From assembly GCA_015233675.1 (NCBI GenBank), contig JADFXH010000002.1, positions 14,794-78,793 on the forward strand: a DNA stretch of 64,000 nt, given 5' to 3'. Below are positions 903-53,952 of the stretch, piece by piece (the first letter of the stretch is position 1; the number at the start of each line of letters is the position of its first letter). The notes under the pieces are model-generated. The model did no database searches. It was not told the origin of the DNA and was given only the letters and a program-made list of their open reading frames with translations. The position numbers and the translations under genes were made by a program. The stretch comes from Candidatus Omnitrophota bacterium (GTDB lineage: Bacteria > Omnitrophota > Gorgyraeia > Zapsychrales > Fredricksoniimonadaceae).

Positions 903-905
903 GAT

Positions 906-1559
906 ATGATCTATCTTTTCCTTGGTGATGACCTGCCAGCAAAAGATGCCAGAATTACCGAAATAAAAAATAAGTTTTTCAAAAACTCTCAGGAAGCTTT
1001 AGCTTTTGACTTGGATAATCTCGATGGCAGAGCTCTGGGAGAAGACGCGTTAAAACAAGCGTTTTTGACCCTGCCGGTCATCGCTCCAAATCGTTTGATC
1101 ATTTTGCGTCAGATCCATAAATTAAAATCCGCTGACATCCAGGTGTTGATCAATTTTTGCCAAAAACCGGCAAAGCATTGTGATGTTATTTTAGAATCCA
1201 GTGAAAATACACTCAAAGGGGATTTAAAAGATATTCCCTTGTACGCCAAGTCACTCGTGTGCTCCAAGCCCGAAGGTCCAAATGTTTTTGATATGACCAG
1301 ATTGATAACAGCCCATCGAAGCGGCGACGCGCTAAAAATGTTAGATGGATTTTATCGGGACAATGTGCATCCATTACAGATCATGCGGGCCTTGGTGTGG
1401 TATTGGGGCAAGCAAGGTAAGCTTCTGGGCAAAGAAGGATTTGAGCGGGGGCTTAAGGCCCTAGAAGAGGCGGATCTAAACATAAAACGAAGCCGCCTTA
1501 ACCCTCAGCATGCGGTGGAAAAAGTGGTGGTAGAATTGAGTTTACTTTTGCGCCGCTAA
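906..1559 (+). CDS. holA: DNA polymerase III delta subunit (short form, 217 aa)
   Basis: N-terminal MIYLFLGDD pattern and C-terminal LEEADLNIK...VEKVVVEL helix typical of HolA. Position after lptE. The 3' end overlaps convergent rpsT by 18 nt. Confidence 0.55.
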   Translation: MIYLFLGDDLPAKDARITEIKNKFFKNSQEALAFDLDNLDGRALGEDALKQAFLTLPVIAPNRLIILRQIHKLKSADIQVLINFCQKPAKHCDVILESSENTLKGDLKDIPLYAKSLVCSKPEGPNVFDMTRLITAHRSGDALKMLDGFYRDNVHPLQIMRALVWYWGKQGKLLGKEGFERGLKALEEADLNIKRSRLNPQHAVEKVVVELSLLLRR

Positions 1560-1802
1560 AGAACGTGCGAACCGGGATTTTCGACGGGCCGCTGTCTTTT
1601 TGTGCATGACGTTGCGTTTGGCCGCTTTATCGAACTTTTTATAGATTTCTTTAAGTAACTCTTTGGTGTCAGCCTTTTTGTCAGCAGCCGCGGTCGTGAA
1701 TTTTTTGACCGTCTTTTTCAGGTCCGTCTTAATCTGCAGATTATGCAGGTGCTTGGTATGGGCTTTACGTAAATCTTTAATGGCAGTGCGGCGTTGTGGC
1801 AT
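1542..1802 (-). CDS. rpsT: 30S ribosomal protein S20
   Basis: 86-aa basic protein. MPQRRTAIKDLRK...KNVMHKKTAARRKSR matches the bS20 family pattern. Confidence 0.9.
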   Translation of the reverse strand: MPQRRTAIKDLRKAHTKHLHNLQIKTDLKKTVKKFTTAAADKKADTKELLKEIYKKFDKAAKRNVMHKKTAARRKSRFARSLAAQK

Positions 1803-1858
1803 GAATAAATTCTCCTTTTAATTGTTTAGAGCGTGAATAATAGCAAACCACTCAATAT

Positions 1859-3238
1859 ATGTCAACTGATAAATCTAAGCCGCTTCATAAACATCACGCC
1901 CTTTTAAAATCCAGCGGCATTGTCGCTTGCGGGGTATTGGCTTCGCGCATGCTGGGATTTGTGCGGGATGTGGTCATAGCCCGCTTTTTAGGGACAGGGT
2001 TTTTAGCCGAGGCGTTTTTTGTGGCCCAGCGCATCCCTAATCTTTTAAGAGATATGGTTGGCGAAGGAGCATCTAACGCGGCCATTGTGCCGGTCTTATC
2101 GGAGTATGAGCAGAAAAAATCTAAAGAAGAATGGCAGGAATGCATTAACGCGGCTTTGGCTTGGGGTGTTATTATTTTAGGAATCATCACCCTTTTGGGC
2201 ATCTTCGCAGCACCCTGGATTGTGCGGCTGATGGCGCCCGGATTTGCCAGAGAGCCGGGGGAATTACAGATAACAGTCGATTTGACGCGGATCATGTTTC
2301 CCTATTTGATTTTGATTGCATTAACTGCTTTTCAAACGGGTATTTTATATTCTTTAAATGCGTTTTTCGCCCCGGCTTTCGGCCCATGTCTTTTGAATTT
2401 AGCCATGATCTTAAGCGTGTTGGTATCGACTTTATTGTCATGGCAAACATATCAACTGGCGTATGCTCTATCAGTCGGCGTGTTAATTGGTGGCGTATGG
2501 CAGTTGGGGGCCCAATGGGAGGCTTTGCGCCGAAGGGGAGTTTATTGGAAAATGCCGTTGAGATTCAACCATGAAGGGGCACGGCAAATCGGCAGGCTTT
2601 TGCTTCCGCGTTTATGGGGGAGCGCTGTTTATCAGATCAATGTGTTCGTGGATACTTTTTGCGCTTCGCTGGCGGTGATTGTTGGCGCTGGCGGTATCGC
2701 CGCGATTTATTATGCCAATCGGATGATTCAATTTCCTTTGGGAGTTTTTGGTTATGCACTTTCATCCGTAGCCCTGCCGTCTTTGTCCAAAATCGCACAG
2801 GAGGGGAACATGATCCTTTTTAGGTCAACCCTCCTGTTTGCTCTGCGAAATTTGATGTTAGTTTTAATACCTACGGCCGTATGCATGGGTATTTTTTCAA
2901 AATGGATTATTCATACTGTTTTCCAGAGAGGCGCTTTTGATGCGTATTCGACGATGGTCACCTCGCAGGTGATGTTTTTTGCCGCGCTGGGATTGCCCTT
3001 TTTTGGAGCTTCAAGGATACTGGTATCCGCTTTTTACGCTTTGCAGGACACTAAGACACCGGTTAAAATAGCTACGGTGTGCCTGTTGATCAACGTGGCG
3101 TTAAATGCGATTTTGATGTTTCCTTTGAAGGTTGGAGGCATTGCCCTGGCCAGCAGCATCGCCGGAGCGGTCAATTGCTTCCTGTTGTGGAAGCATCTTA
3201 ATACGAAATTATGGAGGCCTCTGGGGCCAAAAGGATAA
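1859..3238 (+). CDS. murJ: Lipid II flippase MurJ/MviN (C-terminally short, 459 aa)
   Basis: Polytopic membrane protein. N-terminal SRMLGFVRDVVIARFLGTG...AFFVAQRIPNLLR and EGASNAAIVPV motifs are typical of MurJ. It ends about 9 codons after FLLWKHLNTKL, where orthologs continue for 50-70 aa. Confidence 0.85.
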   Translation: MSTDKSKPLHKHHALLKSSGIVACGVLASRMLGFVRDVVIARFLGTGFLAEAFFVAQRIPNLLRDMVGEGASNAAIVPVLSEYEQKKSKEEWQECINAALAWGVIILGIITLLGIFAAPWIVRLMAPGFAREPGELQITVDLTRIMFPYLILIALTAFQTGILYSLNAFFAPAFGPCLLNLAMILSVLVSTLLSWQTYQLAYALSVGVLIGGVWQLGAQWEALRRRGVYWKMPLRFNHEGARQIGRLLLPRLWGSAVYQINVFVDTFCASLAVIVGAGGIAAIYYANRMIQFPLGVFGYALSSVALPSLSKIAQEGNMILFRSTLLFALRNLMLVLIPTAVCMGIFSKWIIHTVFQRGAFDAYSTMVTSQVMFFAALGLPFFGASRILVSAFYALQDTKTPVKIATVCLLINVALNAILMFPLKVGGIALASSIAGAVNCFLLWKHLNTKLWRPLGPKG

Positions 3239-3249
3239 ATTTATTCTTA

Positions 3250-3443
3250 CGCGCGTGCATTGAGATGAACAGCTATTATGTATTCGGCACGGGAATATTT
3301 TCGCCGTCTGCTACGGTTTACAGCTTGGATGCTATCGCGATAAGGCATACGCGGCATCCAAGCTGTAAAACCTTGCAGACTTTTGGCGAAAAATTCCCAA
3401 ATGTGCCTCACACATAATAGCTGTTCATCTCAAACGCGTGCAT
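3250..3443. repeat. Long imperfect palindrome (about 85-90 nt arms), MITE-like or structured-RNA element
   Basis: The left arm (3250-3332) is near-complementary to the right arm (3354-3443). Perfect blocks are TTGAGATGAACAGCTATTATGT / ACATAATAGCTGTTCATCTCAA and GGTTTACAGCTTGGATGC / GCATCCAAGCTGTAAAACC. The apical loop contains the palindrome TATCGCGATA. Confidence 0.75.
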
Positions 3444-3590
3444 CATTATAAGTCTAAACTTGTTCTTTGAAGTGACTATGATTCAGTATATTGGCTTGGA
3501 TGAATACCTAACCCTATTCATCCATCACGCAACAAATTGAGCACGAGCACGAAGAATAAATTTAACCCTTACAATGTATGCTTGAGTACT

Positions 3591-4835
3591 ATGGACATCA
3601 AGACAAAAATAAAAGGGTTGCCGGCAACTAGCGGGGTTTATTTGTTCAAGGACGCCGCGGGAACTGTTATTTATGCCGGTAAGGCAATCAATATTCGTAA
3701 GCGTGTGGAGTCTTATTTCCGTGCGAATACACGAAGCCTTAAGACGGACGTTTTAGTCAGCCATATTGCCCAGATCGACACCCTTCAAACAGCTTCCGAG
3801 GCTGAAGCCCTTTTATTGGAGGCCAGCCTTATCAAGAAATACCAGCCGAAATACAATGTTGAACTCAAGGACGGTAAAACATATCCTTTTATTCAAATTT
3901 CCAAAGATGAGTTCCCTTTGGTTTCGGTGGTGAGGATAAATACGCGCAAATATAAAGATGTGGACGCAGAGCTTTACGGGCCGTATGTCAATCCGGCGCT
4001 TATCCGCGAGGCATTGCAAATCATTCGTAAGATATTTCCGTTTCGCACTTGCGATCCTTTCGCAGATAAATTGTGTCTTTATTATGACTTGGGACTTTGT
4101 CAGGGCCCTTGTGAGGCAAAGATCAGCAAGAAAGACTATCAACGCAATATCCGGAGCATAAAATTTATTCTCGATGGTAAAAAGGAGGGGATTTATCGTA
4201 ATTTGCGCCTGGACATGGAAAAGCTATCCCGTCGCCATGATTTTGAAGGCGCGGTTCGTCTGCGCGATCAGATCCGTGCGATTGGAGCCTTGTATTCAGG
4301 GACAGGGGACATTAATTATTTTAAAGAAGCAGAGCAGCTGCAAAGGGCCATAGGGCTTAAACGCGCTCCGGTGCGGATTGAGTGTTTTGACATTTCTAAT
4401 ACTATGGGCAATCAGCCGGTGGGGTCCATGGTTTCTTTTTTAAACGGGAAGCCCGATAAAAACAATTACCGCAGGTTTCGTATCAAAACTGTCGAAGGCA
4501 TCGATGATTTTAAGATGATCGCCGAAATCGTACGCCGTCGTTACTCCCGTCTTCAAAAAGAGAAAACGGGTTTTCCGGATTTGATCGTTATTGACGGCGG
4601 TAAGGGTCAGTTGGGTGCGGCGGTGGAGGAATTAAAAAAATTAAATTTGTCTCTGGATGTCATTGGTTTAGCCAAGCAGGAAGAAGAGATTTTTACGCCG
4701 GGCAAACGCATGTCCGTCAAGCTGGCCCATGACTCGTTGGGCTTGAAGCTTCTGATGCGCGTACGCGATGAAGCGCACCGTTTCGGCCTGAAATACCACA
4801 CTCTCTTAAGAGCGAAGAAATTTTTAGAAAAATAG
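3591..4835 (+). CDS. uvrC: Excinuclease ABC subunit C (no C-terminal HhH2 domain)
   Basis: GIY-YIG module (GVYLFKDAAGTVIYAGKAINIRKRV), UVR motif (FEGAVRLRDQIRAI) and RNase H-like nuclease region (FDISN...DGGKGQL...RDEAHRF). I prefer ATG 3591 to the TTG at 3537. Confidence 0.85.
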   Translation: MDIKTKIKGLPATSGVYLFKDAAGTVIYAGKAINIRKRVESYFRANTRSLKTDVLVSHIAQIDTLQTASEAEALLLEASLIKKYQPKYNVELKDGKTYPFIQISKDEFPLVSVVRINTRKYKDVDAELYGPYVNPALIREALQIIRKIFPFRTCDPFADKLCLYYDLGLCQGPCEAKISKKDYQRNIRSIKFILDGKKEGIYRNLRLDMEKLSRRHDFEGAVRLRDQIRAIGALYSGTGDINYFKEAEQLQRAIGLKRAPVRIECFDISNTMGNQPVGSMVSFLNGKPDKNNYRRFRIKTVEGIDDFKMIAEIVRRRYSRLQKEKTGFPDLIVIDGGKGQLGAAVEELKKLNLSLDVIGLAKQEEEIFTPGKRMSVKLAHDSLGLKLLMRVRDEAHRFGLKYHTLLRAKKFLEK

Positions 4836-4840
4836 GATTC

Positions 4841-4859
4841 CCTCCCCCTCGAGGGGAGG
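4841..4859 (+). terminator. GC-rich hairpin after uvrC, followed by a G-rich tail (no U-tract)
   Basis: CCTCCCCC-TCGA-GGGGAGG stem with one bulge, 6 nt after the uvrC stop, then CAAGGGAGGGGGAAG. A similar hairpin plus TTAGGGGGAG lies at 40252-40288. Confidence 0.3.
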
Positions 4860-4895
4860 TCAAGGGAGGGGGAAGTTTATCGTCCTTTTTAAAAT

Positions 4896-5210
4896 ATGAA
4901 GACTAAAAAACAATTAACCGATTTCGAATGGCAGGTTTTACGGGCAGCCTTGACAATACCTTTAGGTGAAACCCGTTCGTATCAGTGGGTCGCCGATAAG
5001 ATAGGACGGCCCAAGGCTGTGCGTGCGGTTGGTCAGGCCTTGCGCCAAAATCCTTATCCTCTGATCATTCCCTGTCACCGAGTGGTTAAATCAGATGGAA
5101 CGCTTGGAGGCTATGCCGGCAAGATGGATGATCAAAAGGCAAAACTTCTGGCTATTGAGCAGGTCATTGCCCGCCGGATCGGCCTTAAAAAACACCTCGA
5201 CAAGCCCTGA
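4896..5210 (+). CDS. ogt: Methylated-DNA--protein-cysteine methyltransferase (MGMT/Ogt, DNA-binding/active-site domain only)
   Basis: Active-site motif IIPCHRVV and downstream GGY motif. 104 aa. Confidence 0.8.
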   Translation: MKTKKQLTDFEWQVLRAALTIPLGETRSYQWVADKIGRPKAVRAVGQALRQNPYPLIIPCHRVVKSDGTLGGYAGKMDDQKAKLLAIEQVIARRIGLKKHLDKP

Positions 5211-5271
5211 TTTTAAGACTATCATGTACGAGTTTTTAAAGATCACCTAGGCTGTTTAGATGTTTTGCGAG

Positions 5272-5376
5272 TAGAGAGAATGGCGTCATTCTGAGGAGCG
5301 ATAACGACAAAGAATATTAAGACGACTTAAGATCCTTTGGCAACGCCTCAGGATGACATCGCCGACGCTCTCTATC
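5272..5376. repeat. Palindromic intergenic repeat of the GTCATTCTGAGG...CCTCAGGATGAC family (copy 1)
   Basis: TAGAGAGAATGGCGTCATTCTGAGG pairs with CCTCAGGATGACATCGCC...CTCTCTA. A related copy lies at 6516-6587 and a single arm at 13195-13254. Confidence 0.7.
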
Positions 5377-5436
5377 TGTTAAACAAAAAAGTTTTTATAA
5401 CATGAATCTGAGTGATTCCCTTTGAAAGGTTTTTGA

Positions 5437-6513
5437 ATGGAAATTGGTATTGTAGGGCTGCCTAATGTCGGCAAATCCTCATTGTTTAATGCTTTGACCG
5501 GCGCCGCCGCGGCAGCTGAAAATTTTCCTTTTACCACCATTGAGCCTAATATCGGCATCGTCCCTTTACCTGATGTCCGGTTGGATGTTTTGGCGCAGGA
5601 ATGGAATTCCGCCAAGGTCACTCCATCAGGCATCCGTTTTGTGGATATCGCCGGAATTGTTGAAGGGGCTTCCCAGGGAGAAGGGTTAGGCAATAAATTC
5701 CTTTCACATATCCGTTCGGTTGATGCCATTGCCCATGTAGTGCGTTGTTTTAAAGACGAGAATGTTGTCAATGTAATGACAGAACTTAATCCTCAGTCTG
5801 CCGCAGATATCATCACTACGGAACTTTTATTGGCAGATATACAGCAATGCCAAACCGCCCTGGACCGTTGGTCTAAAAAAGCTAAGTCGGGCGATAAAGA
5901 TTCTATAATAAAATGCAATGCCTTAAATGATTGCGTAAAAGCGTTTAATGAGGGGATCCCTGCCCGCCGGTTGAAAGACATCCCTCAGGAAATTTTAACT
6001 GAATTTCAGTTTTTGACAGCTAAGCCGTTAATGTATGTTGCCAATACTGACGAGGGGACACCGGATGAAGCTCTGCTTAAGCCCTTACGCGACCGTGCAC
6101 AATCAGAAGGCGCGGCATTGGTTAGTTTGTGTACGAAATTAGAAGCGGAAATTGTGCAGCTGCCTCCTGAGGAGCGCGATGCTTATTATGAGTCTGTGGG
6201 CATTGCCTCTCCGGGTTTGGCTCGTCTGGCCCAGGCGGGCAAAGAATTGCTTAAGCTTATATGTTTTTTTACGGCAGGCCCGCAGGAGACGCGCGCTTGG
6301 CTTATCCCCCAAGGGACGGTTGCGGTCAAGGCCGCAGGGAAGATCCATACGGACATTGAGCGGGGGTTTATCCGTGCTGAGATTTATCGGTATGATGATT
6401 TAAAAAGGCTTGGTTCCTATAAAGCGGTGCAGGAAAAGAATCTGGTGACCCTTGAAGGGAAAGAATATATTATGCAGGATGGCGATTGCGCATATTTTCG
6501 TTTTAGTGTTTAA
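5437..6513 (+). CDS. ychF: Ribosome-binding ATPase YchF
   Basis: Obg-family G1 motif GLPNVGKSSLFNALT, an inserted coiled-coil region, and a C-terminal TGS-like domain (GKEYIMQDGDCAYFRF). Confidence 0.9.
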   Translation: MEIGIVGLPNVGKSSLFNALTGAAAAAENFPFTTIEPNIGIVPLPDVRLDVLAQEWNSAKVTPSGIRFVDIAGIVEGASQGEGLGNKFLSHIRSVDAIAHVVRCFKDENVVNVMTELNPQSAADIITTELLLADIQQCQTALDRWSKKAKSGDKDSIIKCNALNDCVKAFNEGIPARRLKDIPQEILTEFQFLTAKPLMYVANTDEGTPDEALLKPLRDRAQSEGAALVSLCTKLEAEIVQLPPEERDAYYESVGIASPGLARLAQAGKELLKLICFFTAGPQETRAWLIPQGTVAVKAAGKIHTDIERGFIRAEIYRYDDLKRLGSYKAVQEKNLVTLEGKEYIMQDGDCAYFRFSV

Positions 6514-27902: not shown

Positions 27903-28523
27903 ATGCCGCAATGTGAGAAATTAAAACTGCTCCTTGTAGAAGATGAGCCTGATACCTGTGAGACTTTTCAGTCTTATTTTGAAAAGAGAGGCTTTGTTGT
28001 TTTGACTACAGACAGCGGGCGAGAAGCCCTTTGTGTCATCAAATCATCCAAGCCGGACGTTGTCATGCTGGATATTACCTTGAGAGACGAAAATGGCGTC
28101 GATGTTTTAAAAAAATTGCGCGGTTATGACAAAGATACCAAGGTCATCATGGTTACCGGACAACAGTATTCGGATGAGGAAATTGAAAAGATTAAAAGTA
28201 TGGGATTAAGCGGCTATTATGAAAAGCCGGTCCTGCTTGGGGATGTTGCAAAAAGGATTTTTGAGGTTACCGGTTTAGAAGAACCACAGCCCTTGTTGTT
28301 TGAGAAAAAGGCAAAACGTAGAACATATTCATTTGAGGATGATTGCACCCATGATTTAAAAAATTTAGTGGGGATTATCAGTCAGAAATGTGAAAATTTT
28401 ACTTTGGGGATCAAAGATGGTATATACAAATCCCCAAAAGAGAGGGCGCAAAGATTTGCCGTGCTTATGGACGATATCCAGGAAACAGTCAAAAGAGGCA
28501 AGAAGTTTCTAAAGGAGATATGA
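27903..28523 (+). CDS. Response-regulator receiver fused to a DHp/H-box-like C-terminal segment (no ATPase domain)
   Basis: REC module (LLLVEDEPD...MLDITL...KP). C-terminal CTHDLKNLVGII resembles a HisKA H-box. Confidence 0.7.
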   Translation: MPQCEKLKLLLVEDEPDTCETFQSYFEKRGFVVLTTDSGREALCVIKSSKPDVVMLDITLRDENGVDVLKKLRGYDKDTKVIMVTGQQYSDEEIEKIKSMGLSGYYEKPVLLGDVAKRIFEVTGLEEPQPLLFEKKAKRRTYSFEDDCTHDLKNLVGIISQKCENFTLGIKDGIYKSPKERAQRFAVLMDDIQETVKRGKKFLKEI

Positions 28524-28553
28524 ATCCCCAAAACTTTTTTTCTACAAGTTAAA

Positions 28554-28580
28554 CAGGTTCTAACATCCTCTCGCCAGTGA
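28554..28580 (+). repeat. 27-nt direct repeat, left copy (partner at 35900-35926)
   Basis: CAGGTTCTAACATCCTCTCGCCAGTGA versus CAGATTCTAATATCCTCCCGCCAGTGG, 23/27 identical. Confidence 0.7.
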
Positions 28581-28589
28581 CACATAACA

Positions 28590-28801
28590 CTTGACATCCA
28601 CCTCCTTCATTTTATAATTAGATGCTTTATAAGGCGTTGTATATGAGCATAATACTTTGTAACTTTTAACAACGACGAGAAGAGCCTATTTTTAACAATG
28701 GCATGGCCAATCTTTTTGATTCGTCGTCTGGTGCCCCAAGGCCATGTTGCTGATGGTAAACTTAAGTGTTAGATCTCCTGTGGAAAAAATGTCTAAAGTG
28801 G
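28590..28801 (+). promoter_or_regulatory. Promoter-bearing conserved leader element, copy 1 (partner at 32099-32310)
   Basis: TTGACA(28591)-N16-TATAAT(28613), followed by about 185 nt that are highly similar to 32128-32310. The similarity ends in ATGTCTAAAGTGGC. Confidence 0.65.
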
Positions 28802-28865
28802 CTGGCGTGTTATCCACTATGAGATCGGTGACCCTATTTCGCTTCGCCCTCGGTGGCCAAGCAGG

Positions 28866-29331
28866 CAGGCTGTGATGCCATCTGTATCGTCAACGCTTCG
28901 ATATTGAGTTCTTTGCGTTCAAAAACACTGGATGCTGGTGCTGGTCGCATATAATGCCGTCACCCTTGTGTCCTGTACGCATTCTCAGAGCTTCCGACGT
29001 AATATTGATTACTTCCGTCGCAAGGTGCCATTAAAAAATTTACAGTTGCTGACTCGGGTTAGCGTTTAATTTTGCCAAACTCAAATTGGTTATTTAGAGC
29101 AACATGATATTCAGACGCGCAATCTTTTTGCCGGTAATCTATTGCGGCAGCCTTGCTTTGATGGCATGAAAGACGGTATTGATTATCGTGTTATAGGAAA
29201 CCTGAAGAATACGGAAAATATTATGCGTGATACATTCTGGATCGGGGGTTTATCCCGGCTTGTCTCAGAGAGCTTTGGAGTATATAGTTGATACTATACA
29301 TGTTTTCCTTAAAGAGGCTAACGCAAGTTAG
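28866..29331 (+). pseudogene. 5'-truncated, frameshifted remnant of an rfbH/ddhC-type 3-dehydrase
   Basis: 29083-29331 reads QIGYLEQHDIQTRNLFAGNLLRQPCFD...IMRDTFWIG(frameshift: extra G)VYPGLSQRALEYIV, paralogous to the C-terminus of the intact gene at 52573-53952. Upstream fragments (SFRRNIDYFRRKV) are interrupted by stops and deletions. Confidence 0.7.
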
Positions 29332-29345
29332 CAGGGGCGTCTGAA

Positions 29346-30227
29346 ATGAAAAAAGTAAAAGTTGGCATTATTGGAACAGGGAATATTGGCACGGATCTGT
29401 TGATCAAGGTGCAAAGGTCGGAGATCTTAGAATGCGGTCTTTTTGCCGGTAAGAATCCTGATTCAGTTGGGATCAGAAGAGCGGAGAAAATGGGCGTCCG
29501 CACTTCTTTTAATTCAATTAAGGAAATCCAGGATGACCCGGATTGCTGCGCGATCGTGTTTGACGCCACTTCCGCTCAAGTACATTCTTTTAATGCCCCT
29601 ATTCTGACAAAGCTGGGCAAATTTGTGGTTGATCTTACACCATCTTCCATTGGAAAAATGTGCGTTCCGGTCGTTAACCTTAAGGAATGTCTAAATTCCG
29701 TTAATGTTAATCTTATTACCTGCGGCGGGCAAGCCACAATTCCTATAGCCTATGCCTTGATAAAAGCGCATCCTGAAATTGGATATATAGAAGTTGTAGC
29801 CAGTATCGCTTCAAAATCAGCTGGTTCCGGGACCAGGGCGAACATTGATGAATATGTTCTGGCGACCAAGGAGGCTGTCAGGATTTTTACCGGAGTGGAT
29901 CAAGCCAAAGCAATTATTATATTAAATTCCGCGGAGCCACCTGTTTTTATGCGCAATACGGTTTACGCGAAGATCGAAAAGCCAAATCTGGAAAAAATTA
30001 CCGAACAAGTCTTGATCATGGCGCAAAAGATACAAAAATATGTTCCAGGGTACAAGATTGTTCTCGGGCCTGTTGTGGAAAATAACCGCGTTACGACCAT
30101 GGTTGAGGTGGCGGGGAGGGGGGATTTTCTTCCAAAATACTCCGGCAATCTGGACATTATTACCTGCGCGGCAGTAAATGTTGCCGAAGAGTTTGCCAAG
30201 AAGAAAATTCTTAGACTAAAGGATTAA
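29346..30227 (+). CDS. Acetaldehyde dehydrogenase (acetylating), DmpF/MhpF family
   Basis: GIIGTGNIGTDL Rossmann motif. Catalytic-Cys context ITCGGQATIP. About 290 aa. Confidence 0.85.
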   Translation: MKKVKVGIIGTGNIGTDLLIKVQRSEILECGLFAGKNPDSVGIRRAEKMGVRTSFNSIKEIQDDPDCCAIVFDATSAQVHSFNAPILTKLGKFVVDLTPSSIGKMCVPVVNLKECLNSVNVNLITCGGQATIPIAYALIKAHPEIGYIEVVASIASKSAGSGTRANIDEYVLATKEAVRIFTGVDQAKAIIILNSAEPPVFMRNTVYAKIEKPNLEKITEQVLIMAQKIQKYVPGYKIVLGPVVENNRVTTMVEVAGRGDFLPKYSGNLDIITCAAVNVAEEFAKKKILRLKD

Positions 30228-30232
30228 AATTT

Positions 30233-31264
30233 ATGACTAAAGATATCATTTTTTTTGATTCCACCTTACGGGACGGGTCTCACGCCATCGGCCATAAATT
30301 GACGGTGGACAATATCAGGAACTATTGCACAGGGATCGATGGTTCCGGATTGCACGTGGTCATAGTAGGACATGGCAATGGTTTGGGAGCATCTTCTTTG
30401 CAGATCGGGCTGTCAGCTTTACCAGATCAGGAGATGCTAACAACTGCCAGAAAAGCATTAAAGAAAACAAAGCTGGGCGCATTTTTGATCCCGGGTCTGG
30501 GAACCATAAAAGACAATCTTGCCCCAGCTATCGACCTGGGGGTCGATCTTGTGTGCGTGGCTTGCCACTGTACGGAGGCAGATGTTACCGGTCAGCATAT
30601 TGACTATGTTAGGAAAAGAGGGAAAGATGTTTATGGCGTATTAATGATGTGCCACATGGCAGCGAAAGAGAAATTATTAATGGAAGCCAAGAAAATGCAA
30701 AGCTATGGCGCGTTAGGGGTGATTTTGATGGATTCCGCAGGGGCTTTTGATCCGAACATGCTGGAAGAGACTGTAAGTTTTTTATCCAAAAAGCTGGATA
30801 TCCCGGTGGGATTTCACGGGCATAACAATTTGGGGTTAGCCGTTAGTAATTCCTTAACTGCCATAAGGTCTGGAGCCAAAATTATTGATGGAACGATCCG
30901 GGGCTTTGGGGCTGGGGCCGGCAATTGCCAACTCGAGGTCTTTATCGGGTTATTATCAAGAATGAAGATAGAAACAGGCGTTGATCTTTATAAGCTGATG
31001 GATGTAAGTGATGGGGTCGTGGCTAAAATTATGCACAAGGCCCAGGAAATAGATTCAGTATCTTTGACCAGCGGGATGGCAGGGGTTTTTTCCGGCTTTG
31101 CTCCCTATGTAAAAAAAGCTGCAGAACGTTTTTCTGTTGATCCGCGGGATATTTTCATTGCCTTAGGCAAAAGGAAGATAGTCGGGGGACAAGAAGATTT
31201 TATTATCGATGTGGCTTTAGAAATAGCTAATAAAAAAGCCAAAGACCAGAATTTGTCCTTTTAA
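30233..31264 (+). CDS. 4-hydroxy-2-oxovalerate aldolase, DmpG/MhpE family
   Basis: DSTLRDGSHA and FHGHNNLGLAVSN metal-binding motifs. Adjacent to its usual DmpF-type partner. Confidence 0.85.
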   Translation: MTKDIIFFDSTLRDGSHAIGHKLTVDNIRNYCTGIDGSGLHVVIVGHGNGLGASSLQIGLSALPDQEMLTTARKALKKTKLGAFLIPGLGTIKDNLAPAIDLGVDLVCVACHCTEADVTGQHIDYVRKRGKDVYGVLMMCHMAAKEKLLMEAKKMQSYGALGVILMDSAGAFDPNMLEETVSFLSKKLDIPVGFHGHNNLGLAVSNSLTAIRSGAKIIDGTIRGFGAGAGNCQLEVFIGLLSRMKIETGVDLYKLMDVSDGVVAKIMHKAQEIDSVSLTSGMAGVFSGFAPYVKKAAERFSVDPRDIFIALGKRKIVGGQEDFIIDVALEIANKKAKDQNLSF

Positions 31265-31282
31265 AATAGAGGGAGATCTTGA

Positions 31283-32035
31283 ATGTTAAAGGAATCATTA
31301 AAAAATGGGGGGGTTGCCTTAGGAACATGGTGTGATTTGCCCAGCCCCGCCGTTGTGAATGTATTGGCTAAGGCTAAACTGGATTTTGTCATTATTGATA
31401 TGGAACATGGCCCCATGGACTTCAAAATAGCCCAGGACATGCTCATGGCGGCTGAATGCGAAGGAACAGAGGCTCTGGTGCGCGTACCACGCTTGGATGA
31501 ATCAGATATATTGCGGTCTTTGGACCTGGGGGCGGCAGGCATCATTGTGCCACATATTGAAAGCGTAGAGGATAGAAAGAAGGTGGTCGCTTACAGTAAA
31601 TTCCCTCCGGTTGGCCAAAGAGGGTTTAATCCTTATGTGCGTGGCGGTGGATATCGCAAAGCAGACCGGGAATATTGTGTCATTCAGAATGAAAGAATAA
31701 TTGTAGGGTTGATCATAGAAGGAGTAGATGCTTTAGCCAATTTAGAACGTATCATTGATGATCCCAACGTTGATCTAATTTATATTGGAACGTATGATCT
31801 GTCATTAGCCTTAGGGATGCCTGGGGATGTAGGCCATCCTAAGGTCTTAAAAGCACTGGAAAAAGCGGCGGCTAATGTGATCAAAGCTAAAAAAAGTGTC
31901 GGCTGCATGATCCATCAAGCTTCGGATCTGGCAAGGTTCAAAGAGTTGGGTATTCAGTTCATAACGTATAAGATAGATAGCGCGATTATCTATGACTCGG
32001 TGGCAAGCATTAAAAGGGAGTTTGATCGGCTATGA
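31283..32035 (+). CDS. HpcH/HpaI-family class II (pyruvate-dependent) aldolase
   Basis: The 250-aa TIM-barrel pattern LDFVIIDMEHGP...VRVP...IIVPHIES...IGTYDLS is typical of HpaI/YfaU aldolases. Confidence 0.8.
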   Translation: MLKESLKNGGVALGTWCDLPSPAVVNVLAKAKLDFVIIDMEHGPMDFKIAQDMLMAAECEGTEALVRVPRLDESDILRSLDLGAAGIIVPHIESVEDRKKVVAYSKFPPVGQRGFNPYVRGGGYRKADREYCVIQNERIIVGLIIEGVDALANLERIIDDPNVDLIYIGTYDLSLALGMPGDVGHPKVLKALEKAAANVIKAKKSVGCMIHQASDLARFKELGIQFITYKIDSAIIYDSVASIKREFDRL

Positions 32036-32103
32036 AACTGTCCGATTACATGGTTAAATTCTTAGAGGACAGGGGCGTTAAAGATGTTTTTATGCTTTCT
32101 TGA
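32032..32103 (+). pseudogene. 23-codon stub of a ThDP-enzyme N-terminus (recombination scar)
   Basis: MKLSDYMVKFLEDRGVKDVFMLS-stop parallels MRLCDYIAQFLVKQGVKDIFMLTGYG of the intact gene at 32379. Its ATG overlaps the aldolase stop (ATGA). The stub is cut off exactly where leader copy 2 begins. Confidence 0.7.
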
Positions 32104-32310
32104 CATCTACCGCGTTTATTTTATAATCAAATGCATAATAAATTTTTGCATATAAATGTAATACTTTATAAATTTTAACAATGACGAGAAGCGTCTATTT
32201 TTAAGCATGGCATGACTAATCTTTTTGATTCGTCGTCTGGTGACCAAAGGCCTGTTGCCGATGGTAAACTTCAGTGGTAGATCTCCTGTGAAAAGAATGT
32301 CTAAAATGGC
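32099..32310 (+). promoter_or_regulatory. Promoter-bearing conserved leader element, copy 2
   Basis: TTGACA(32100)-N16-TATAAT(32122), followed by the conserved core ...TTTTAACAATGACGAGAAG...AATCTTTTTGATTCGTCGTCTGGTG...GATGGTAAACTT...TAGATCTCCTGTG...ATGTCTAAAATGGC. Confidence 0.65.
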
Positions 32311-32392
32311 CCAACATTTGTTGGGCCAGCTCATGTTTAAGCTCCTGGTGCATGCCCGTCATATAGAAAGAGGGGCGGATGAGACTGTGTGA
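32297..32392 (+). CDS. Candidate 31-codon upstream ORF overlapping the ThDP-enzyme start
   Basis: MSKMAQHLLGQLMFKLLVHARHIERGADETV. Its first codons are conserved in copy 1 (28788). Its stop (32390-32392) lies 11 nt inside the downstream gene. A GGCCCAAC/GTTGGGCC hairpin at 32308-32327 lies within it. Confidence 0.25.
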   Translation: MSKMAQHLLGQLMFKLLVHARHIERGADETV

Positions 32393-34070
32393 TTACATTG
32401 CTCAATTTTTGGTCAAGCAAGGTGTAAAAGACATTTTTATGCTTACTGGCTACGGCGCTATGTATATGAACGATGCCATCCAGCAGTCAGGTATTAAGTA
32501 TTATGCCACTCGTAATGAAGCAACTGCGCCGATGATGGCCGAAGCCTATGCCCGCGTGCGCCAGTCCTTAGGTGCTGTGTGTGTTACTGCTGGACCGGGC
32601 GCAACCAATGCCATACCAGGGTTAGCGGAAGCTTTCGTAGACTCTGCCCCCATTTTAGTGCTCTCTGGTCAAGTTGAATCCAGGTATACCACTCACAAAA
32701 TAGGAATCCCTGGCTTGAGAACCTTTGGTTCCCCGGAAATCAATATTGTCCCTATTGTACAAAGCCTAACTAAATTTGCTGCAGTGGTTGAAGAGCCTTC
32801 GCAGATCCGTTATTTGTTGGAAAAGGCCGTCTATTATGCACTTTCCGGCCGTCCAGGGCCGGTGTGGCTGGATGTGCCTTTAGACATGCAACAGATGGAA
32901 ATTGATCCTTCCAGCCTTAAAGGATTTGTTCCGACCGCTGAATCCAATATTGGGGACATAGATAAATCTGTTAAGCAAGCATTTGAAATGCTATCCAGTG
33001 CAAAAAAGCCGTTGATCATCGCTGGTCATGGCATTCGGCAAGCCTGTTTGGCCAGCCAACTGCGTAGTTTGGTAGAGACCTTGAAGGTTCCGGTTATTTT
33101 TTCGCGGTTTGGTCAGGACCTGATGCCGCATTCGCACCCCTTTGTATTTGGACACGGAGGGGGCAAAGGTTCGCGTTACTGCAAAGCTATCATGAACCAG
33201 GCTGATGTAGTAGTATCTTTAGGTTGCCGGCTCGCCCCGCAATTTACTGGCCATGATTTTGAGGCCTTTGCCAAGGATGTCAAGATCATCATGGTCGATA
33301 TTGATCCAGCGGAACTGGAGAAACCGGGGATTCCACTGGCCCTAAAAATCCGCGCGCACCTGCGTCCATTCATGGATGCTTTGTTGAACGAGGTAAAATT
33401 ACAGCCTTCCGGAAATTGGGAAAGCTGGGTCAATACTTGCAGGGAATTTAAACAAAAAAATCCAATGGTCACGGTGGCATCTAAGCGTAATCCTATTGAC
33501 CTGTATTACTTCATGTACCGGTTAGGAGAACTTTCCGGGAAAAACCATGTCCTTGTTACAGATGCAGGTTCTAATTATTATGTTGGCGGACAGGTATGGA
33601 ATTTCGAAAGCGGCCAGCGCGAGATCATGTCAGGGACCAATGCAGCCATGGGGACTTCAATTCCTTTGGCCATTGGGGCGGCTGTGGCTGCGCCGGATTC
33701 CCAAATACTGGCTGTCACCGGGGATGGCTCCCTAGAACTTAACATCCAGGAACTTAAGACCATATCGCATTATAAATTAAATTTGAAGCTTTTCGTCATC
33801 AATAACGGCGGCTATGCGTCCATGCGTAAATGGCAGGACACTTATTTTGACGGACGGCGTATTGATACTGAGGAATCAACTGGTGCGGGGACGCTCAATC
33901 TCAAGCAGGTGGCCAAAGCATTTGATCTAGAGCATGTTTGCATTGAGCGCTATGAAGACATTGATGTCCAACTAAAAAAGATCATGTCGGATGATCGTCC
34001 ACTGTTCGTGGAAGTCATGACTGACAATAACCAAAAAATATTTGAAGCCTTTAAGGACAAAGATGGTTAA
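32379..34070 (+). CDS. Thiamine-diphosphate enzyme of the acetolactate synthase / YerE-like family
   Basis: Three-domain ALS-type layout. ThDP motif VTGDGSLELNIQEL...FVINNGGYASM. Confidence 0.85.
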   Translation: MRLCDYIAQFLVKQGVKDIFMLTGYGAMYMNDAIQQSGIKYYATRNEATAPMMAEAYARVRQSLGAVCVTAGPGATNAIPGLAEAFVDSAPILVLSGQVESRYTTHKIGIPGLRTFGSPEINIVPIVQSLTKFAAVVEEPSQIRYLLEKAVYYALSGRPGPVWLDVPLDMQQMEIDPSSLKGFVPTAESNIGDIDKSVKQAFEMLSSAKKPLIIAGHGIRQACLASQLRSLVETLKVPVIFSRFGQDLMPHSHPFVFGHGGGKGSRYCKAIMNQADVVVSLGCRLAPQFTGHDFEAFAKDVKIIMVDIDPAELEKPGIPLALKIRAHLRPFMDALLNEVKLQPSGNWESWVNTCREFKQKNPMVTVASKRNPIDLYYFMYRLGELSGKNHVLVTDAGSNYYVGGQVWNFESGQREIMSGTNAAMGTSIPLAIGAAVAAPDSQILAVTGDGSLELNIQELKTISHYKLNLKLFVINNGGYASMRKWQDTYFDGRRIDTEESTGAGTLNLKQVAKAFDLEHVCIERYEDIDVQLKKIMSDDRPLFVEVMTDNNQKIFEAFKDKDG

Positions 34071-34097
34071 ACGAGCAGGAAAGGAAATTGTTGATCA

Positions 34098-34919
34098 ATG
34101 AAGAATGAAATGATTATGGATGAGAGATCACGTTATCTTCGCAAACTTATTTTACAGGGATGGGAAGGGGCAAGGAAAGGACATATTGGCTCGGTGTTGT
34201 CCCTGGTAGAGATTCTTAGGGTCCTTTATGACGATATTATGAATTATCGCCCTCAAGAACCCTTATGGCCGGATAGGGATAGGTTTATTCTAAGCAAAGC
34301 CCACGGCTGCTTGGCATTATATGCTATCTTGGCGGACAAGGGTTTTATTGGAATAGATGAATTGAAAACATATTCTTTGGATGGCTCAAGATTGGTAGCA
34401 GCTTGTGAGTATAATACCGTGCCTGGCGTAGAGGTAACAACAGGCGCATTAGGGCATGGGCTTCCTATAGGGGTAGGGATGGCGCTTGCCGCCCGCATAC
34501 AAAAAAGGCCAAGCCGCGTTTATGTAGTAATGGGCGATGGGGAATTAAATGAAGGGTCGGTATGGGAAGCGGCATTGTATTCAGCACACCATAAATTATC
34601 GAATCTTACAGCCATCATTGATTATAATAAATTGCAGATTGCCGGGCCCAATGAAGAAATTATAGGCCTTGAACCATTAAAAGAAAAATGGGCCAGTTTC
34701 GGTTTTGCTGTTGAGGAAATCGACGGCCATGACGTTGATACCTTAAAGAAAACTTTAAAAAGATTGCCATTCTCCAAAGGGAAACCGTCGGTTGTTATAT
34801 GTCATACCATCAAAGGAAAAGGGATTGACTTTGTAGAAAATGATTATAAATGGCATTGGAAAAATAGTTTAGACGACGAAACGGTTTCAAGAATGAAGTC
34901 TTTATTGGAGGAAGAATAA
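34098..34919 (+). CDS. Transketolase, N-terminal (ThDP-binding) subunit
   Basis: GHIGSVLSLVEIL, DRFILSKAHG, and GDGELNEGSVWEA...IIDYN motif. Confidence 0.85.
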   Translation: MKNEMIMDERSRYLRKLILQGWEGARKGHIGSVLSLVEILRVLYDDIMNYRPQEPLWPDRDRFILSKAHGCLALYAILADKGFIGIDELKTYSLDGSRLVAACEYNTVPGVEVTTGALGHGLPIGVGMALAARIQKRPSRVYVVMGDGELNEGSVWEAALYSAHHKLSNLTAIIDYNKLQIAGPNEEIIGLEPLKEKWASFGFAVEEIDGHDVDTLKKTLKRLPFSKGKPSVVICHTIKGKGIDFVENDYKWHWKNSLDDETVSRMKSLLEEE

Positions 34920-35851
34920 TGCTTAACGCATTTAAAGATGCCATCTATGAAGCTGCAAAAAACGATAAGCGGATCATCCTCATGGTTACTGATAACGATA
35001 TCGGATTAAGCCATATGCAAGCTGAGATGCCCGATCAATATTTTGTCGAAGGTATTTCAGAGGCAAACACTATGGGGGTCGCCTCAGGCCTCGCTGCCGA
35101 TGGATTCATGCCTTTTATTATCAATATCGCCAGCTTTTTGGTCAGACGGAGCTATGAACAAATAGTCCTGGATGTTTGTTTGCAAAACAGGCCTGTAAGA
35201 TTGATAGGTATAGGGGGAGGATTCTCAATGGCACATTTGGGGACTACACATACCACCATTGAAGATATTGCTATCATGCGGGCTGTTCCTGAAATGACCG
35301 TTATTGCCCCCTGTGATGCCCTCGAAATGAAGAAACTAGTGCCTTCCATATTAAAATGGCCGAAACCTATTTATATAAGGCTTGCCAGGTACGGTAAACC
35401 CGTCGTCACTAAGGAAGAAAGCGATATTGATATTGGCAAAGCAGTAGTGCTCCGTCAGGCCTCTGCAGGCCATAAAAGCGTGCTTTTGATTTCCACAGGT
35501 GCCATGACTTCCCGTACAATTAAGACAGCTGAGGAGCTTCAAAATCTTGGAATTGAATCAACGGTCCTGCATCTTCATACGATAAAACCTTTGGATGAAA
35601 AGGCCATTATTGAACAGGCACGCCGAGTTCCCCTAGTCGTTACCATAGAGGATCATTCGATTATAGGCGGGTTAGGCAGCGCCTGTATGGGAGTCCTTAT
35701 GAATAATATGCATCCGGATCTTCCCCGGCTGCATTGCATAGGAGTGCCGGATAAATTTATTCATGTATATGGGACCCAAGAGTCTTTATTAAAAAGCGTA
35801 GGACTTGAGCCGTCACAAATGGCAAAGACAATCTACCAGCTCACTAAGTAA
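34919..35851 (+). CDS. Transketolase, C-terminal (pyrimidine-binding) subunit
   Basis: FVEGISEANTMGVASGLA and HTIKPLDEKAI motifs. Its start overlaps the N-subunit stop (TAATG). Confidence 0.85.
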   Translation: MLNAFKDAIYEAAKNDKRIILMVTDNDIGLSHMQAEMPDQYFVEGISEANTMGVASGLAADGFMPFIINIASFLVRRSYEQIVLDVCLQNRPVRLIGIGGGFSMAHLGTTHTTIEDIAIMRAVPEMTVIAPCDALEMKKLVPSILKWPKPIYIRLARYGKPVVTKEESDIDIGKAVVLRQASAGHKSVLLISTGAMTSRTIKTAEELQNLGIESTVLHLHTIKPLDEKAIIEQARRVPLVVTIEDHSIIGGLGSACMGVLMNNMHPDLPRLHCIGVPDKFIHVYGTQESLLKSVGLEPSQMAKTIYQLTK

Positions 35852-35899
35852 CTTCATGCCATTAATAAGAAGAATTTGAAAATTAATATTTCTTTTAGG

Positions 35900-35926
35900 C
35901 AGATTCTAATATCCTCCCGCCAGTGG
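35900..35926 (+). repeat. 27-nt direct repeat, right copy, followed by a degenerate copy of the leader promoter
   Basis: See 28554-28580. The downstream GTTACAT...TTTATACT (35940-35968) parallels TTGACAT...TTTATAAT of copy 1. Confidence 0.6.
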
Positions 35927-36026
35927 CCCCATATGTAACAGTTACATTAAGTAATCTTAGTTTATACTGGAGATTTTTGGGAAGATCTATTAAATTGCAG
36001 TATACGCGTTTGCTTCAGTATTTGTA

Positions 36027-36054
36027 TTGACATTGTTTTTGTATTTTATATAAT
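36027..36054 (+). promoter_or_regulatory. Candidate promoter of the winged-helix regulator / downstream glycan operon
   Basis: TTGACA-N16-TATAAT, the same 16-nt spacer as the leader promoters. Confidence 0.5.
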
Positions 36055-36075: not shown

Positions 36076-36648
36076 ATGAATGCCTCTAAAGACCCCCTTA
36101 ATGAACGCGATTTTGAATTGATCAATATTGTCGGTGGTCAATTAGCCTCTAACCAGCGCGACCTTTCCCGTTATATGAACCTTTCTTTAGGAATGACCAA
36201 TATGCTTTTAAAGCGTTTGGTTACTAAAGGTTATATCCGTATTAAACAGCTTGACCGTCGAAAAGTTGAATATTTCCTGACTCCAAAAGGATTTGCTGAA
36301 AAGATGCGCAAGTCTGTCAAATACACGCTAAAAACCATTAGTTCCATAGGTTTAATTAAAAAACAACTTTTAGATATTCTTGGAAATCTTTATGCAAAAG
36401 GCCATAGGAAATTTTATGTTTTGGGAGATTCGGATTTCGCTCAATTGGTGGAGAGCGCTTTAATACAGTCTCAATGGGGAGGGGTTGAAGTTGGCCGGGT
36501 TAAATCTTTATCGGAAAATCCTGATGGTTTGGTGCTTATTTGCAGGGAAGATGAAAACAGCCCGGAATTAAGCGGGGAGCGTTATGTGGATTTGATTAAA
36601 GAGTTAGCTAGCCGGGAGAATAACGAATTTGAAGCGGTAGAAAGGTAA
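36076..36648 (+). CDS. Winged-helix (MarR-like) transcriptional regulator with an uncharacterised C-terminal domain
   Basis: QRDLSRYMNLSLGMTNMLLKRLVTKGYIRIKQLDRRKVEYFLTPKG is a wHTH pattern. I prefer ATG 36076 to the TTG at 36064. Confidence 0.65.
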   Translation: MNASKDPLNERDFELINIVGGQLASNQRDLSRYMNLSLGMTNMLLKRLVTKGYIRIKQLDRRKVEYFLTPKGFAEKMRKSVKYTLKTISSIGLIKKQLLDILGNLYAKGHRKFYVLGDSDFAQLVESALIQSQWGGVEVGRVKSLSENPDGLVLICREDENSPELSGERYVDLIKELASRENNEFEAVER

Positions 36649-52572: not shown

Positions 52573-53952
52573 ATGAAGAGTGATTTGGATATTTTTGATT
52601 TGGAGCTAAAAGGTGTCGTTGACGCGAAGGAAGCTGACGGGATTCTTAGAAAACTGATCGGGAAGGCAATTGAAAAACATTATCAATACGTTCACAAACC
52701 CCGTTTAGATTTTGTGCCCGGCAAATCGCCTGTTCCTTTGGCTGGCCGTGTTTATGATGCCGAGGAAATGAAGATGCTGGGAGAAACAGTGCTTGATTTC
52801 TGGTTGACGGGGGGAAGATTTGAGAAGCAATTTGAAAAAGAATTTACTCGTTTTTTAGGGGAACGGTTTTGTGTGCTGACCAATTCAGGCTCTTCGGCCA
52901 ATCTTTTAGCGGTATCAGCATTAACATCGCATTTATTGAAAGACCGTCAGCTTAAGCCCGGTGATGAAGTGCTGACGGTTGCCGCTGGTTTTCCAACGAC
53001 AATAGCCCCCATTGTGCAAAACGGACTGGTCCCGGTGCTGGTTGATATTGATACGGGAACATATAATGTAAACGTCGACCAACTTGAGGGGGCCGTTTCT
53101 ACTAAGACCAAAGCCATCATCCTGGCGCACACCTTGGCTAATCCATTTAATCTCCAACGCGTACAGGCTCTAGCAGAGAAACATCATTTGTGGTTGATTG
53201 AGGATAGCTGCGATGCCTTGGGGTCGCTGTATCAAGGGCGTCCGGTCGGAACTTTTGGACATATGGCCACATTTAGCTTTTATCCCGCCCACCATATTAC
53301 TATGGGGGAAGGCGGAGCTGTTGTAACGAATGACCCCATCTTAAAGAAGGCGATCGCTTCTTTTCGTGATTGGGGCAGGGACTGTGATTGCGACACGGGC
53401 AAGGACAACACTTGCGGTAAAAGATTCTCCTGGCAGCTGGGGGATTTGCCCCAAGGCTATGACCATAAGTATATTTATTCTCATCTTGGGTACAATCTGA
53501 AATTAACGGATATGCAAGCGGCCATTGGCGTTGCTCAGATGAAGAAGTTAGGCTCTTTTATACAAACCAGGCGTAGTAATTGGCAACACCTTTTAGACAA
53601 GTTAAAAGATTTGGAGGAGTATTTTATTTTACCGCGCGCGGAAGAATTTTCAGAGCCAAGTTGGTTTGGTTTTCTTTTGACCATTCGTCCGGCATCTCCT
53701 TTTAAAAGAATTGATCTGGTGAGGTTTCTGGAAGAACACAAGATTGCAACACGGATGCTGTTTGCCGGCAATATTACCAAACAGCCGGGATTTAAGAATA
53801 TTCCCTGCCGGGTGCCGTTTGATCTTAGTAATACAAATTTTACTATGAGCAATACATTTTGGGTAGGGGTATATCCGGGAATATCACATGTTATGTTGGA
53901 CTATACTGCCGGACAGATCAGGGATTTTGTCAACCGTTTAAGGAAGGTGTAG
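52573..53952 (+). CDS. rfbH: NDP-4-keto-6-deoxy-sugar 3-dehydrase, E1 type (RfbH/DdhC; PMP- and [2Fe-2S]-dependent)
   Basis: DegT/DnrJ/EryC1 fold. YPAHHIT has His in place of the PLP lysine. The cysteine spacing is exactly C-X57-C-X1-C-X7-C (SCDALG...[17 protein letters not shown]). Confidence 0.8.

Follow-up and report, generated by a model that had tools for sequence, protein, structure and literature searches.

In O-antigen loci, it is standard to find remnants of genes where modules meet and, at the cluster head, a conserved JUMPstart sequence that bears a promoter; examples of such remnants are tyv beside abe in Yersinia pseudotuberculosis and galF and gnd flanking imported clusters (PMC5399914). 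Erwiniose-type clusters for acyl-branched sugars pair a BphI/BphJ-like aldolase and dehydrogenase with a thiamine diphosphate (ThDP) enzyme and a reductase, and the product of the aldolase is the donor for the ThDP enzyme (PMC9306805). Here, we analyze a gene junction in a Candidatus Omnitrophota bacterium (GenBank assembly GCA_015233675.1, contig JADFXH010000002.1, positions 14,794 to 78,793 of the forward strand). This stretch of 64,000 nucleotides (nt) is referred to as the window, and all coordinates are those of the window. At the junction, an HpcH aldolase gene runs into a 23-codon stub of a ThDP-enzyme gene and then into the second copy of a promoter-bearing leader. We consider it probable that the junction is a recombination scar within a mosaic polysaccharide and branched-sugar cluster in which modules have been stacked at the head, and that the second leader copy serves mainly as an internal promoter. 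The features at and around the scar are as follows.

32032 to 32103, plus strand: the stub, made up of the first 22 codons of an ancestral gene for a 601-amino-acid (aa) ThDP enzyme (ErwE/YerE-like), one junction codon and a stop codon.
28590 to 28802, plus strand: leader copy 1 (in head element H1), a perfect sigma70 promoter (28591 to 28618) followed by a noncoding leader of ~185 nt.
32099 to 32310, plus strand: leader copy 2 (head element H2), a perfect promoter (32100 to 32127) and the leader, without the spacer S that precedes copy 1.

The stub opens where a first-pass annotation of this DNA had placed it, at the stop codon of the aldolase gene (31283 to 32035; Pfam PF03328). The TGA at 32033 to 32035 overlaps the ATG at 32032, and the open reading frame (ORF) that begins there translates as MKLSDYMVKFLEDRGVKDVFMLS, followed by a stop. 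That stop, a TGA at 32101 to 32103, falls within the -35 hexamer of leader copy 2 (TTGACA, 32100 to 32105), in agreement with the claim that the stub ends at this hexamer. The stub had also been described as homologous to, and diverged from, the N terminus of the full-length ThDP enzyme downstream (ThDP2, start at 32379), and a nucleotide alignment bears this out, with 71% nucleotide identity and 13 of 23 aa identical. Against the N terminus of the 601-aa enzyme of a related locus (L006), which reads (M)MKLSDYMVKFLEDNGVKDVFMLTGGG, 21 of the 23 aa are identical. A tblastn search with a relative’s 601-aa ThDP enzyme as the query matched positions 32032 to 32100 at 91% identity (E = 1.6e-7), and the 23-mer alone matches positions 1 to 22 of the Pfam domain TPP_enzyme_N (E = 0.006). 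By these similarities, the stub is a genuine remnant of an ErwE/YerE-like sugar-branching ThDP gene, here called thdp1. Residues 25 to 601 of thdp1 have no other match in the window by tblastn except a 40%-identical paralogue. Homology to the ancestral ThDP gene can be followed up to 32096/97, and with the repeat starting at 32099, the junction is defined to 1 to 2 nt.

Codon changes indicate how long the remnant was part of an intact gene. The stub and L006 differ at 12 codons, 11 of them synonymously and one non-synonymously; across the whole aldolase gene, the corresponding counts are 79 and 51. The ratio of 11 to 1 shows that the stub diverged largely while it was still translated as part of a working gene, so the truncation is comparatively recent. 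The predicted duplex between the start region of the stub and the anti-Shine-Dalgarno (anti-SD) sequence has an energy of -8.1 kcal/mol.

The annotation had further postulated an ancestral, translationally coupled aldolase–ThDP enzyme pair that was interrupted, and the uninterrupted arrangement exists in relatives. Genes for a 249-aa aldolase and a 601-aa ThDP enzyme, overlapping by the same 4 nt, are uninterrupted in five related contigs. The order dmpF–dmpG–hpcH–ThDP (601 aa), with the 4-nt stop/start overlap, is present in L005, L006, L061 and two ENA contigs, and L060 carries the hpcH–ThDP junction only. N termini were aligned with the stub for the four loci with readable DNA (L005, L006, L060 and L061), and at all four the N terminus of the 601-aa enzyme is near-identical to the stub. 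Within Omnitrophota, relatives of the window aldolase are 80% identical to it. A related ENA contig (ERZ1426817) has two HpcH-aldolase–601-aa-ThDP pairs ~5.5 kb apart, so module duplication also happens in relatives.

The module of these relatives encodes a DmpG/BphI-like aldolase, a DmpF/BphJ-like dehydrogenase, an acetolactate-synthase-like ThDP enzyme, a reductase and RfbH. This set equals that of the erwiniose/yersiniose systems (ErwE/YerE ThDP enzyme, ErwF/YerF reductase and ErwI/ErwJ aldolase–dehydrogenase), and from gene content we infer that the stub-bearing block of the window, module A, belongs to a pathway of this type. Module A differs from the described systems by an extra HpcH/HpaI aldolase and by the reduction of its ThDP gene to 22 codons, and the likeness of the 601-aa enzyme to ErwE is one of gene set rather than of direct identity comparison.

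The leader that adjoins the stub is present in only two copies in the window. These are identical at 178 of 213 positions (84%; blastn E = 1e-21), and their flanks are unrelated. Each opens with TTGACA-16-TATAAT, a promoter score of 12/12. Identity is distributed unevenly, at 25/29 in the promoter, 18/31 (58%) in the next 31 nt and 86 to 90% in the remaining ~150 nt (Fisher p = 2e-4), which hints at constraint or gene conversion. Parts of the same head recur around leader copy 1 and beyond the genes that follow leader copy 2, as listed here.

28549 to 28579, plus strand: spacer S, directly upstream of leader copy 1 and the left part of head element H1.
35895 to 35968, plus strand: H3, a second copy of spacer S (35895 to 35925) and a decayed promoter, GTTACA-16-TATACT (35941 to 35968).
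36027 to 36054, plus strand: a third perfect TTGACA-16-TATAAT promoter, heading a MarR_EPS-like regulator gene (36076 to 36648) and the rest of the cluster.

The two copies of spacer S lie 7.35 kb apart and are identical at 26 of 31 positions (blastn against the whole window, E = 0.001). The second directly follows a pair of transketolase genes, with the decayed promoter at the corresponding distance. The recurrence of spacer S places direct repeats on both sides of a 7.35-kb block that extends from leader copy 1 to the end of the transketolase genes. Perfect consensus promoters number three in the 64 kb (at 28591, 32100 and 36027) versus 0.06 expected, and all three are on the plus strand, have 16-nt spacers and stand at the heads of successive ~3.5-kb modules. 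The match of the MarR_EPS-like gene to its family (NCBIfam TIGR04176, 45.9 bits) is below the cut-off. We regard the leader as a head element seen so far at one locus, for which a predicted promoter role is well supported by the consensus.

Wider searches returned no further copy of the leader. A metagenome scan with the pattern TTCGTCGTCTGGTGN{10,30}GGTAAAC gave 4 matches, all in coding DNA of unrelated organisms, and a genome scan with GACGAGAAGN{25,45}GATTCGTCGTC gave 50, all non-Omnitrophota and mostly high in GC, none of which could be extended against the leader. Two viral scans produced seeded short matches only, the best of which (in L099) sits within a 308-aa ORF. With nhmmer --max run over all 101 loci, the leader was not found in Omnitrophota relatives. 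We also rejected the leader as a coding sequence: a 1-nt indel breaks the one long minus-strand ORF (72 aa), and small plus-strand ORFs lie in different frames in the two copies. Among the latter, small ORFs of 22 to 24 codons in both leaders (32212 to 32280 and 28698 to 28772) end at the same TAG; they start in different frames because of the 1-nt indel, have the last ~8 residues in common (VADGKL..) and are probably due to chance.

The sharp boundaries of the repeat, with a left edge that coincides with the -35 hexamer, would also be expected if the 213-base-pair (bp) unit were a small mobile or portable promoter cassette, such as a miniature inverted-repeat transposable element (MITE)-like or outward-promoter element, that had inserted into thdp1. 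We consider this very unlikely. No terminal inverted repeats or target-site duplications are conserved in both copies, there are two copies in 64 kb and none in any collection scan, and insertion alone would leave the loss of the remaining 579 thdp1 codons unexplained. Moreover, the -35 edge is no natural end of the element, because spacer and promoter are contiguous in H1 and H3. An invertible promoter or a MITE was rejected for similar reasons, as the ends of the two copies have no inverted repeats in common and the flanks carry no duplication. The joint could, in principle, have arisen during assembly, by chimeric joining of two strain variants: the source is a metagenome-assembled genome, and glycan loci are often strain-variable. 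However, the stub and the leader share only 1 to 3 nt at the joint for an assembler to collapse, and the two leaders are only 84% identical, which makes an artifact extremely improbable.

The stub is not the only broken gene of module A, which is also scarred at its left end. From leader copy 1 to the stub, the following features are present.

28803 to 29084, no strand assigned: debris, 283 nt, relatively GC-rich, following leader copy 1.
29085 to 29316, plus strand: C-terminal remnant of rfbH (CDP-4-keto-6-deoxyglucose 3-dehydrase), with a frameshift near 29245.
29346 to 32035, plus strand: genes for a dmpF-like acetaldehyde dehydrogenase, a dmpG-like 4-hydroxy-2-oxovalerate aldolase and the HpcH/HpaI aldolase, all intact (Pfam).

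The GC content of the debris is locally raised, at 0.49 to 0.57 versus ~0.43, and no conserved ORF, Pfam match, or protein or DNA similarity was found for it in the window and the fetched loci. The rfbH remnant comprises the last ~75 codons and matches residues 363 to 435 of the 437 of L006 RfbH in two frames (E~1e-12, blastx/tblastn); L006 RfbH is itself assigned to NCBIfam RfbH with 728 bits. An intact rfbH-like gene, 56% identical to L006 RfbH, is located elsewhere in the window (52573 to 53952). The dmpF-like, dmpG-like and hpcH genes are each 79% identical to their L006 orthologues. By NCBIfam, dmpF and dmpG score above the cut-off and the HpcH/HpaI matches score below theirs. Either side could have been the newcomer at the stub junction; module A carries a second scar, the rfbH remnant, at its far end.

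Beyond leader copy 2 lies a different set of genes.

32379 to 35851, plus strand: module B, encoding ThDP2 (563 aa) and transketolase subunits of the N-terminal and C-terminal types (Pfam).

ThDP2 occupies 32379 to 34070 (anti-SD duplex energy, -7.3 kcal/mol), and the split transketolase occupies 34098 to 34919 and 34919 to 35851. At 40% identity to the 601-aa enzyme, which is the orthologue of the stub, ThDP2 is by sequence a paralogue of the stub’s gene and not an allele of it. The first-pass annotation had attributed the interruption to a different allele that came with its own promoter and leader. This account is unproven and in part incorrect, because the downstream enzyme is a paralogue and the leader recurs within the locus, with its other full copy at the head of the cluster.

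A related proposal is that the aldolase–ThDP1 pair was resident and that a foreign block, consisting of leader copy 2, ThDP2 and the transketolase genes, arrived by horizontal transfer and replaced everything from codon 23 of thdp1 on. The best homologue of ThDP2 is only 68% identical and its closest homologues come from mixed taxa, versus the 80%-identical Omnitrophota relatives of the aldolase; in addition, the stub is little decayed, and the 16% divergence of the leader copies is what would be expected if they came from different lineages. The same three-gene ThDP2–transketolase module is present in another Omnitrophota genome (L007) and on an ENA contig (L008), yet no leader-like sequence was found on either, nhmmer included, and the leader was not found outside the locus. 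Further, the repeat stops short of ThDP2 by 68 nt of unique sequence, no GC anomaly or anomaly in GC at third codon positions (GC3) is seen across ThDP2 and the transketolase genes, and module A, scarred on its left, is equally likely to be the inserted fragment. On balance, we judge horizontal arrival of the downstream block to be possible but unlikely.

An upstream ORF (uORF) that starts within leader copy 2, together with a hairpin that it contains, had been described as compatible with translational coupling or attenuation.

32297 to 32392, plus strand: the proposed uORF, with its ATG at 32297 and its stop at 32390 to 32392, 31 codons, overlapping the start of ThDP2 by 14 nt.
32307 to 32328, plus strand: hairpin with a GC-rich stem of 9 bp and a 4-nt loop, between the end of the repeat and the ThDP2 ribosome-binding site.

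The 31-codon uORF exists as claimed and overlaps the ThDP2 ORF. Its ATG lacks a Shine-Dalgarno sequence, with an anti-SD duplex energy of +0.4 kcal/mol versus medians of -5.5 for 51 genes and -2.7 for all ATG triplets. Only the first 5 codons, which lie inside the repeat and encode MSK(V/M)A, are common to both copies; in copy 1, the equivalent ATG at 28789 opens a 28-codon ORF that runs out in the debris and reaches no gene. We infer that the uORF arose by chance. The hairpin does exist and is stable (-16.8 kcal/mol, z = -3.5), but it does not lie within the leader, where it had been placed: the repeat ends at 32310, so that only the first 4 nt of the hairpin are inside it and the rest is unique to copy 2, with unrelated sequence at the same place in copy 1. 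Its tail, GCUCAUGUUU, is a poor U-tract. Terminator-like sites in the scan were no more numerous than in shuffles, and the weak predicted pairing of GCCC with the ThDP2 Shine-Dalgarno sequence is not compelling. Attenuation or coupling thus has no positive support, given the missing Shine-Dalgarno sequence, the 5 common codons, the lack of a proper U-tract and a hairpin that is confined to copy 2. In having a short leader ORF that overlaps a hairpin and ends inside the downstream gene, the arrangement resembles leader-peptide attenuation and uORF coupling of the trp, erm and pyrL types; it differs from them in that it has no ribosome-binding site, conserved peptide, demonstrated alternative antiterminator or proper U-tract and in the position of the hairpin outside the conserved leader.

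The leader itself might still act as a cis-regulatory RNA for long glycan operons, as an attenuator, a riboswitch-like element or a processive antitermination element analogous to JUMPstart/ops, EAR or LoaP, with the copy-2 hairpin as a regulated terminator and a uORF that may sense translation. Consistent with such a role, conservation is significantly higher over the distal 150 nt than over the proximal 31 nt, the operons extend over >30 kb on a single strand throughout, the copy-2 hairpin is stable, and two alternative hairpins in the leader use one common 3' arm, with one compensatory and two wobble-compatible changes. However, covariation is powerless with two sequences (268 of 500 shuffles were as good), the two copies have different minimum-free-energy folds, neither of which transfers to the other copy, and the core hairpins do not exceed shuffled sequences in stability (z = -0.7 and -1.1), so that the evidence for RNA structure in the leader is too thin to call. 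Rfam 15 gave no gathering-score match in the window and nothing relevant even at E <= 10 in 28400 to 32500. No match to the ops element GGCGGTAGnnTG with <=3 mismatches occurs in either leader, matches across the window being as frequent as expected by chance, and no NGN/KOW (NusG/RfaH-like) protein was found among the window ORFs scanned with Pfam. As the hairpin lies beyond the repeat and lacks a proper U-tract and the uORF has neither a Shine-Dalgarno sequence nor a conserved peptide, a regulatory RNA of this kind appears doubtful.

The setting of the junction is that of a long unidirectional cluster. All genes from ~28.6 kb to the end of the window are on the plus strand and encode nucleotide-sugar and polysaccharide enzymes (Pfam), and the upstream flank consists of two-component regulators and housekeeping genes. 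A terminator scan found no intrinsic terminators between modules. Adjoining the cluster head upstream is a response regulator gene (27903 to 28523) whose product has a receiver domain and a C-terminal region of ~85 aa without a Pfam match; among 5.8 billion proteins, its homologues were one full-length protein (50% identity) and one 120-aa fragment (50%). The sole, distant relative found with synteny at this anchor, L059 (Logan SRR22388340 contig, 1 to 6100), shares the left flank: it has response regulators, a minus-strand ORF of 186 aa where the window has its cupin gene, and the 50%-identical response regulator, followed by a YfhO-like gene and housekeeping genes. Both the glycan cluster and the leader are absent from L059 at the shared flank. 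Because the response regulator gene of L059 precedes unrelated genes and no glycan cluster, the cluster head is a variable site, and the whole cluster looks like a variable island.

These observations can be combined in a recombination scar with stacking of modules at the cluster head, along the following lines. The ancestral module had the erwiniose/yersiniose-type order rfbH, acetaldehyde dehydrogenase, 4-hydroxy-2-oxovalerate aldolase, HpcH aldolase and 601-aa ThDP enzyme. It was cut at both ends by illegitimate recombination or deletion, with the rfbH C-terminal remnant, the three intact genes and the first 22 codons of thdp1 as the survivors. At the right-hand cut, the sequence passes within 1 to 2 nt into the -35 hexamer that opens the second head-element copy, and this copy now fronts a different, paralogous acyl-branching module, that of ThDP2 and the split transketolase. 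More generally, the cluster head may repeatedly have received or reshuffled modules of ~3.5 kb, with the head element (spacer S, promoter and leader) as the anchor. The outcome would be a full copy in H1, a copy cut at the -35 hexamer in H2 and a copy in H3 that decayed and was superseded by the third consensus promoter. Candidate routes are Campbell-type recombination, homology-facilitated illegitimate recombination and deletions in a longer ancestral cluster.

Campbell-type integration leaves direct repeats, and homology-facilitated illegitimate recombination was reportedly described by de Vries and Wackernagel in 2002. The locus resembles both processes in that blocks are bracketed by direct repeats of an anchor and other joints have essentially no homology; it differs in that the mechanism here is read from the end product, with no donor or recipient state observed. 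Today, leader copy 2 would mainly be a constitutive promoter inside the cluster, at which transcription of the downstream part starts anew. The stub would still be translationally coupled to the aldolase gene and probably yields a meaningless 23-aa peptide. The hairpin may belong to the native upstream region of ThDP2 and could be a pause site, a stabilizer or a weak attenuator.

Several points weigh against the history proposed here. The order and direction of events are not reconstructable, and no sister genome with either parental arrangement was found. Every simple model has to treat the position of the cut, at the very edge of the -35 hexamer, as a coincidence, and past the 31-nt spacer H3 shows weak homology. 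Promoter activity is a consensus-based prediction, and read-through from promoter 1 would make promoter 2 dispensable. Finally, the better-kept distal part of the leader hints at a further function, such that the description of leader copy 2 as mainly a promoter may be incomplete.

With remnants in O-antigen and capsule loci, the junction has in common that a short, recognizable fragment of a sugar-pathway gene marks module exchange in a unidirectional mosaic cluster. It differs in that the joint abuts a duplicated promoter-leader rather than an insertion sequence element or a conserved flanking gene and in that the host is an uncultivated Omnitrophota bacterium. The head element also resembles JUMPstart/ops (Hobbs & Reeves 1994; Bailey et al. 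1997, as cited in PMC5399914) as a conserved noncoding promoter-region sequence upstream of more than one polysaccharide module at a recombination-prone locus head. However, JUMPstart has 39 bp versus 213 bp here, the leaders have no ops motif at <=3 mismatches and no sequence homology to it, no RfaH-type factor was identified among the scanned window ORFs, and the element is known from a single locus. The bolder proposal that the head element is the Omnitrophota counterpart of JUMPstart, portable and selectively maintained, serving both as recombination anchor and as a cis-acting antitermination or regulatory RNA for sugar operons of >30 kb, with the copy-2 hairpin as its regulated pause or terminator, seems to us quite improbable. 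By analogy with O-antigen and capsule loci, the scar type and promoter-bearing leaders at module heads are already known; the novelty lies in the phylum and in the element itself.

The junction reflects ordinary mosaic evolution of a polysaccharide locus and opens no new question. It provides a clean, nucleotide-resolved example of how surface-glycan clusters diversify in an uncultivated phylum: the aldolase and dehydrogenase genes, whose products form the donor, have been retained, and behind them now stands a paralogous ThDP/transketolase module that has its own consensus promoter. Module boundaries could be marked by the repeated promoter-leader, which could also be of use as a strong natural promoter. 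A new acyl-branched sugar could result from the swap, provided that the retained genes still function together with the new module.

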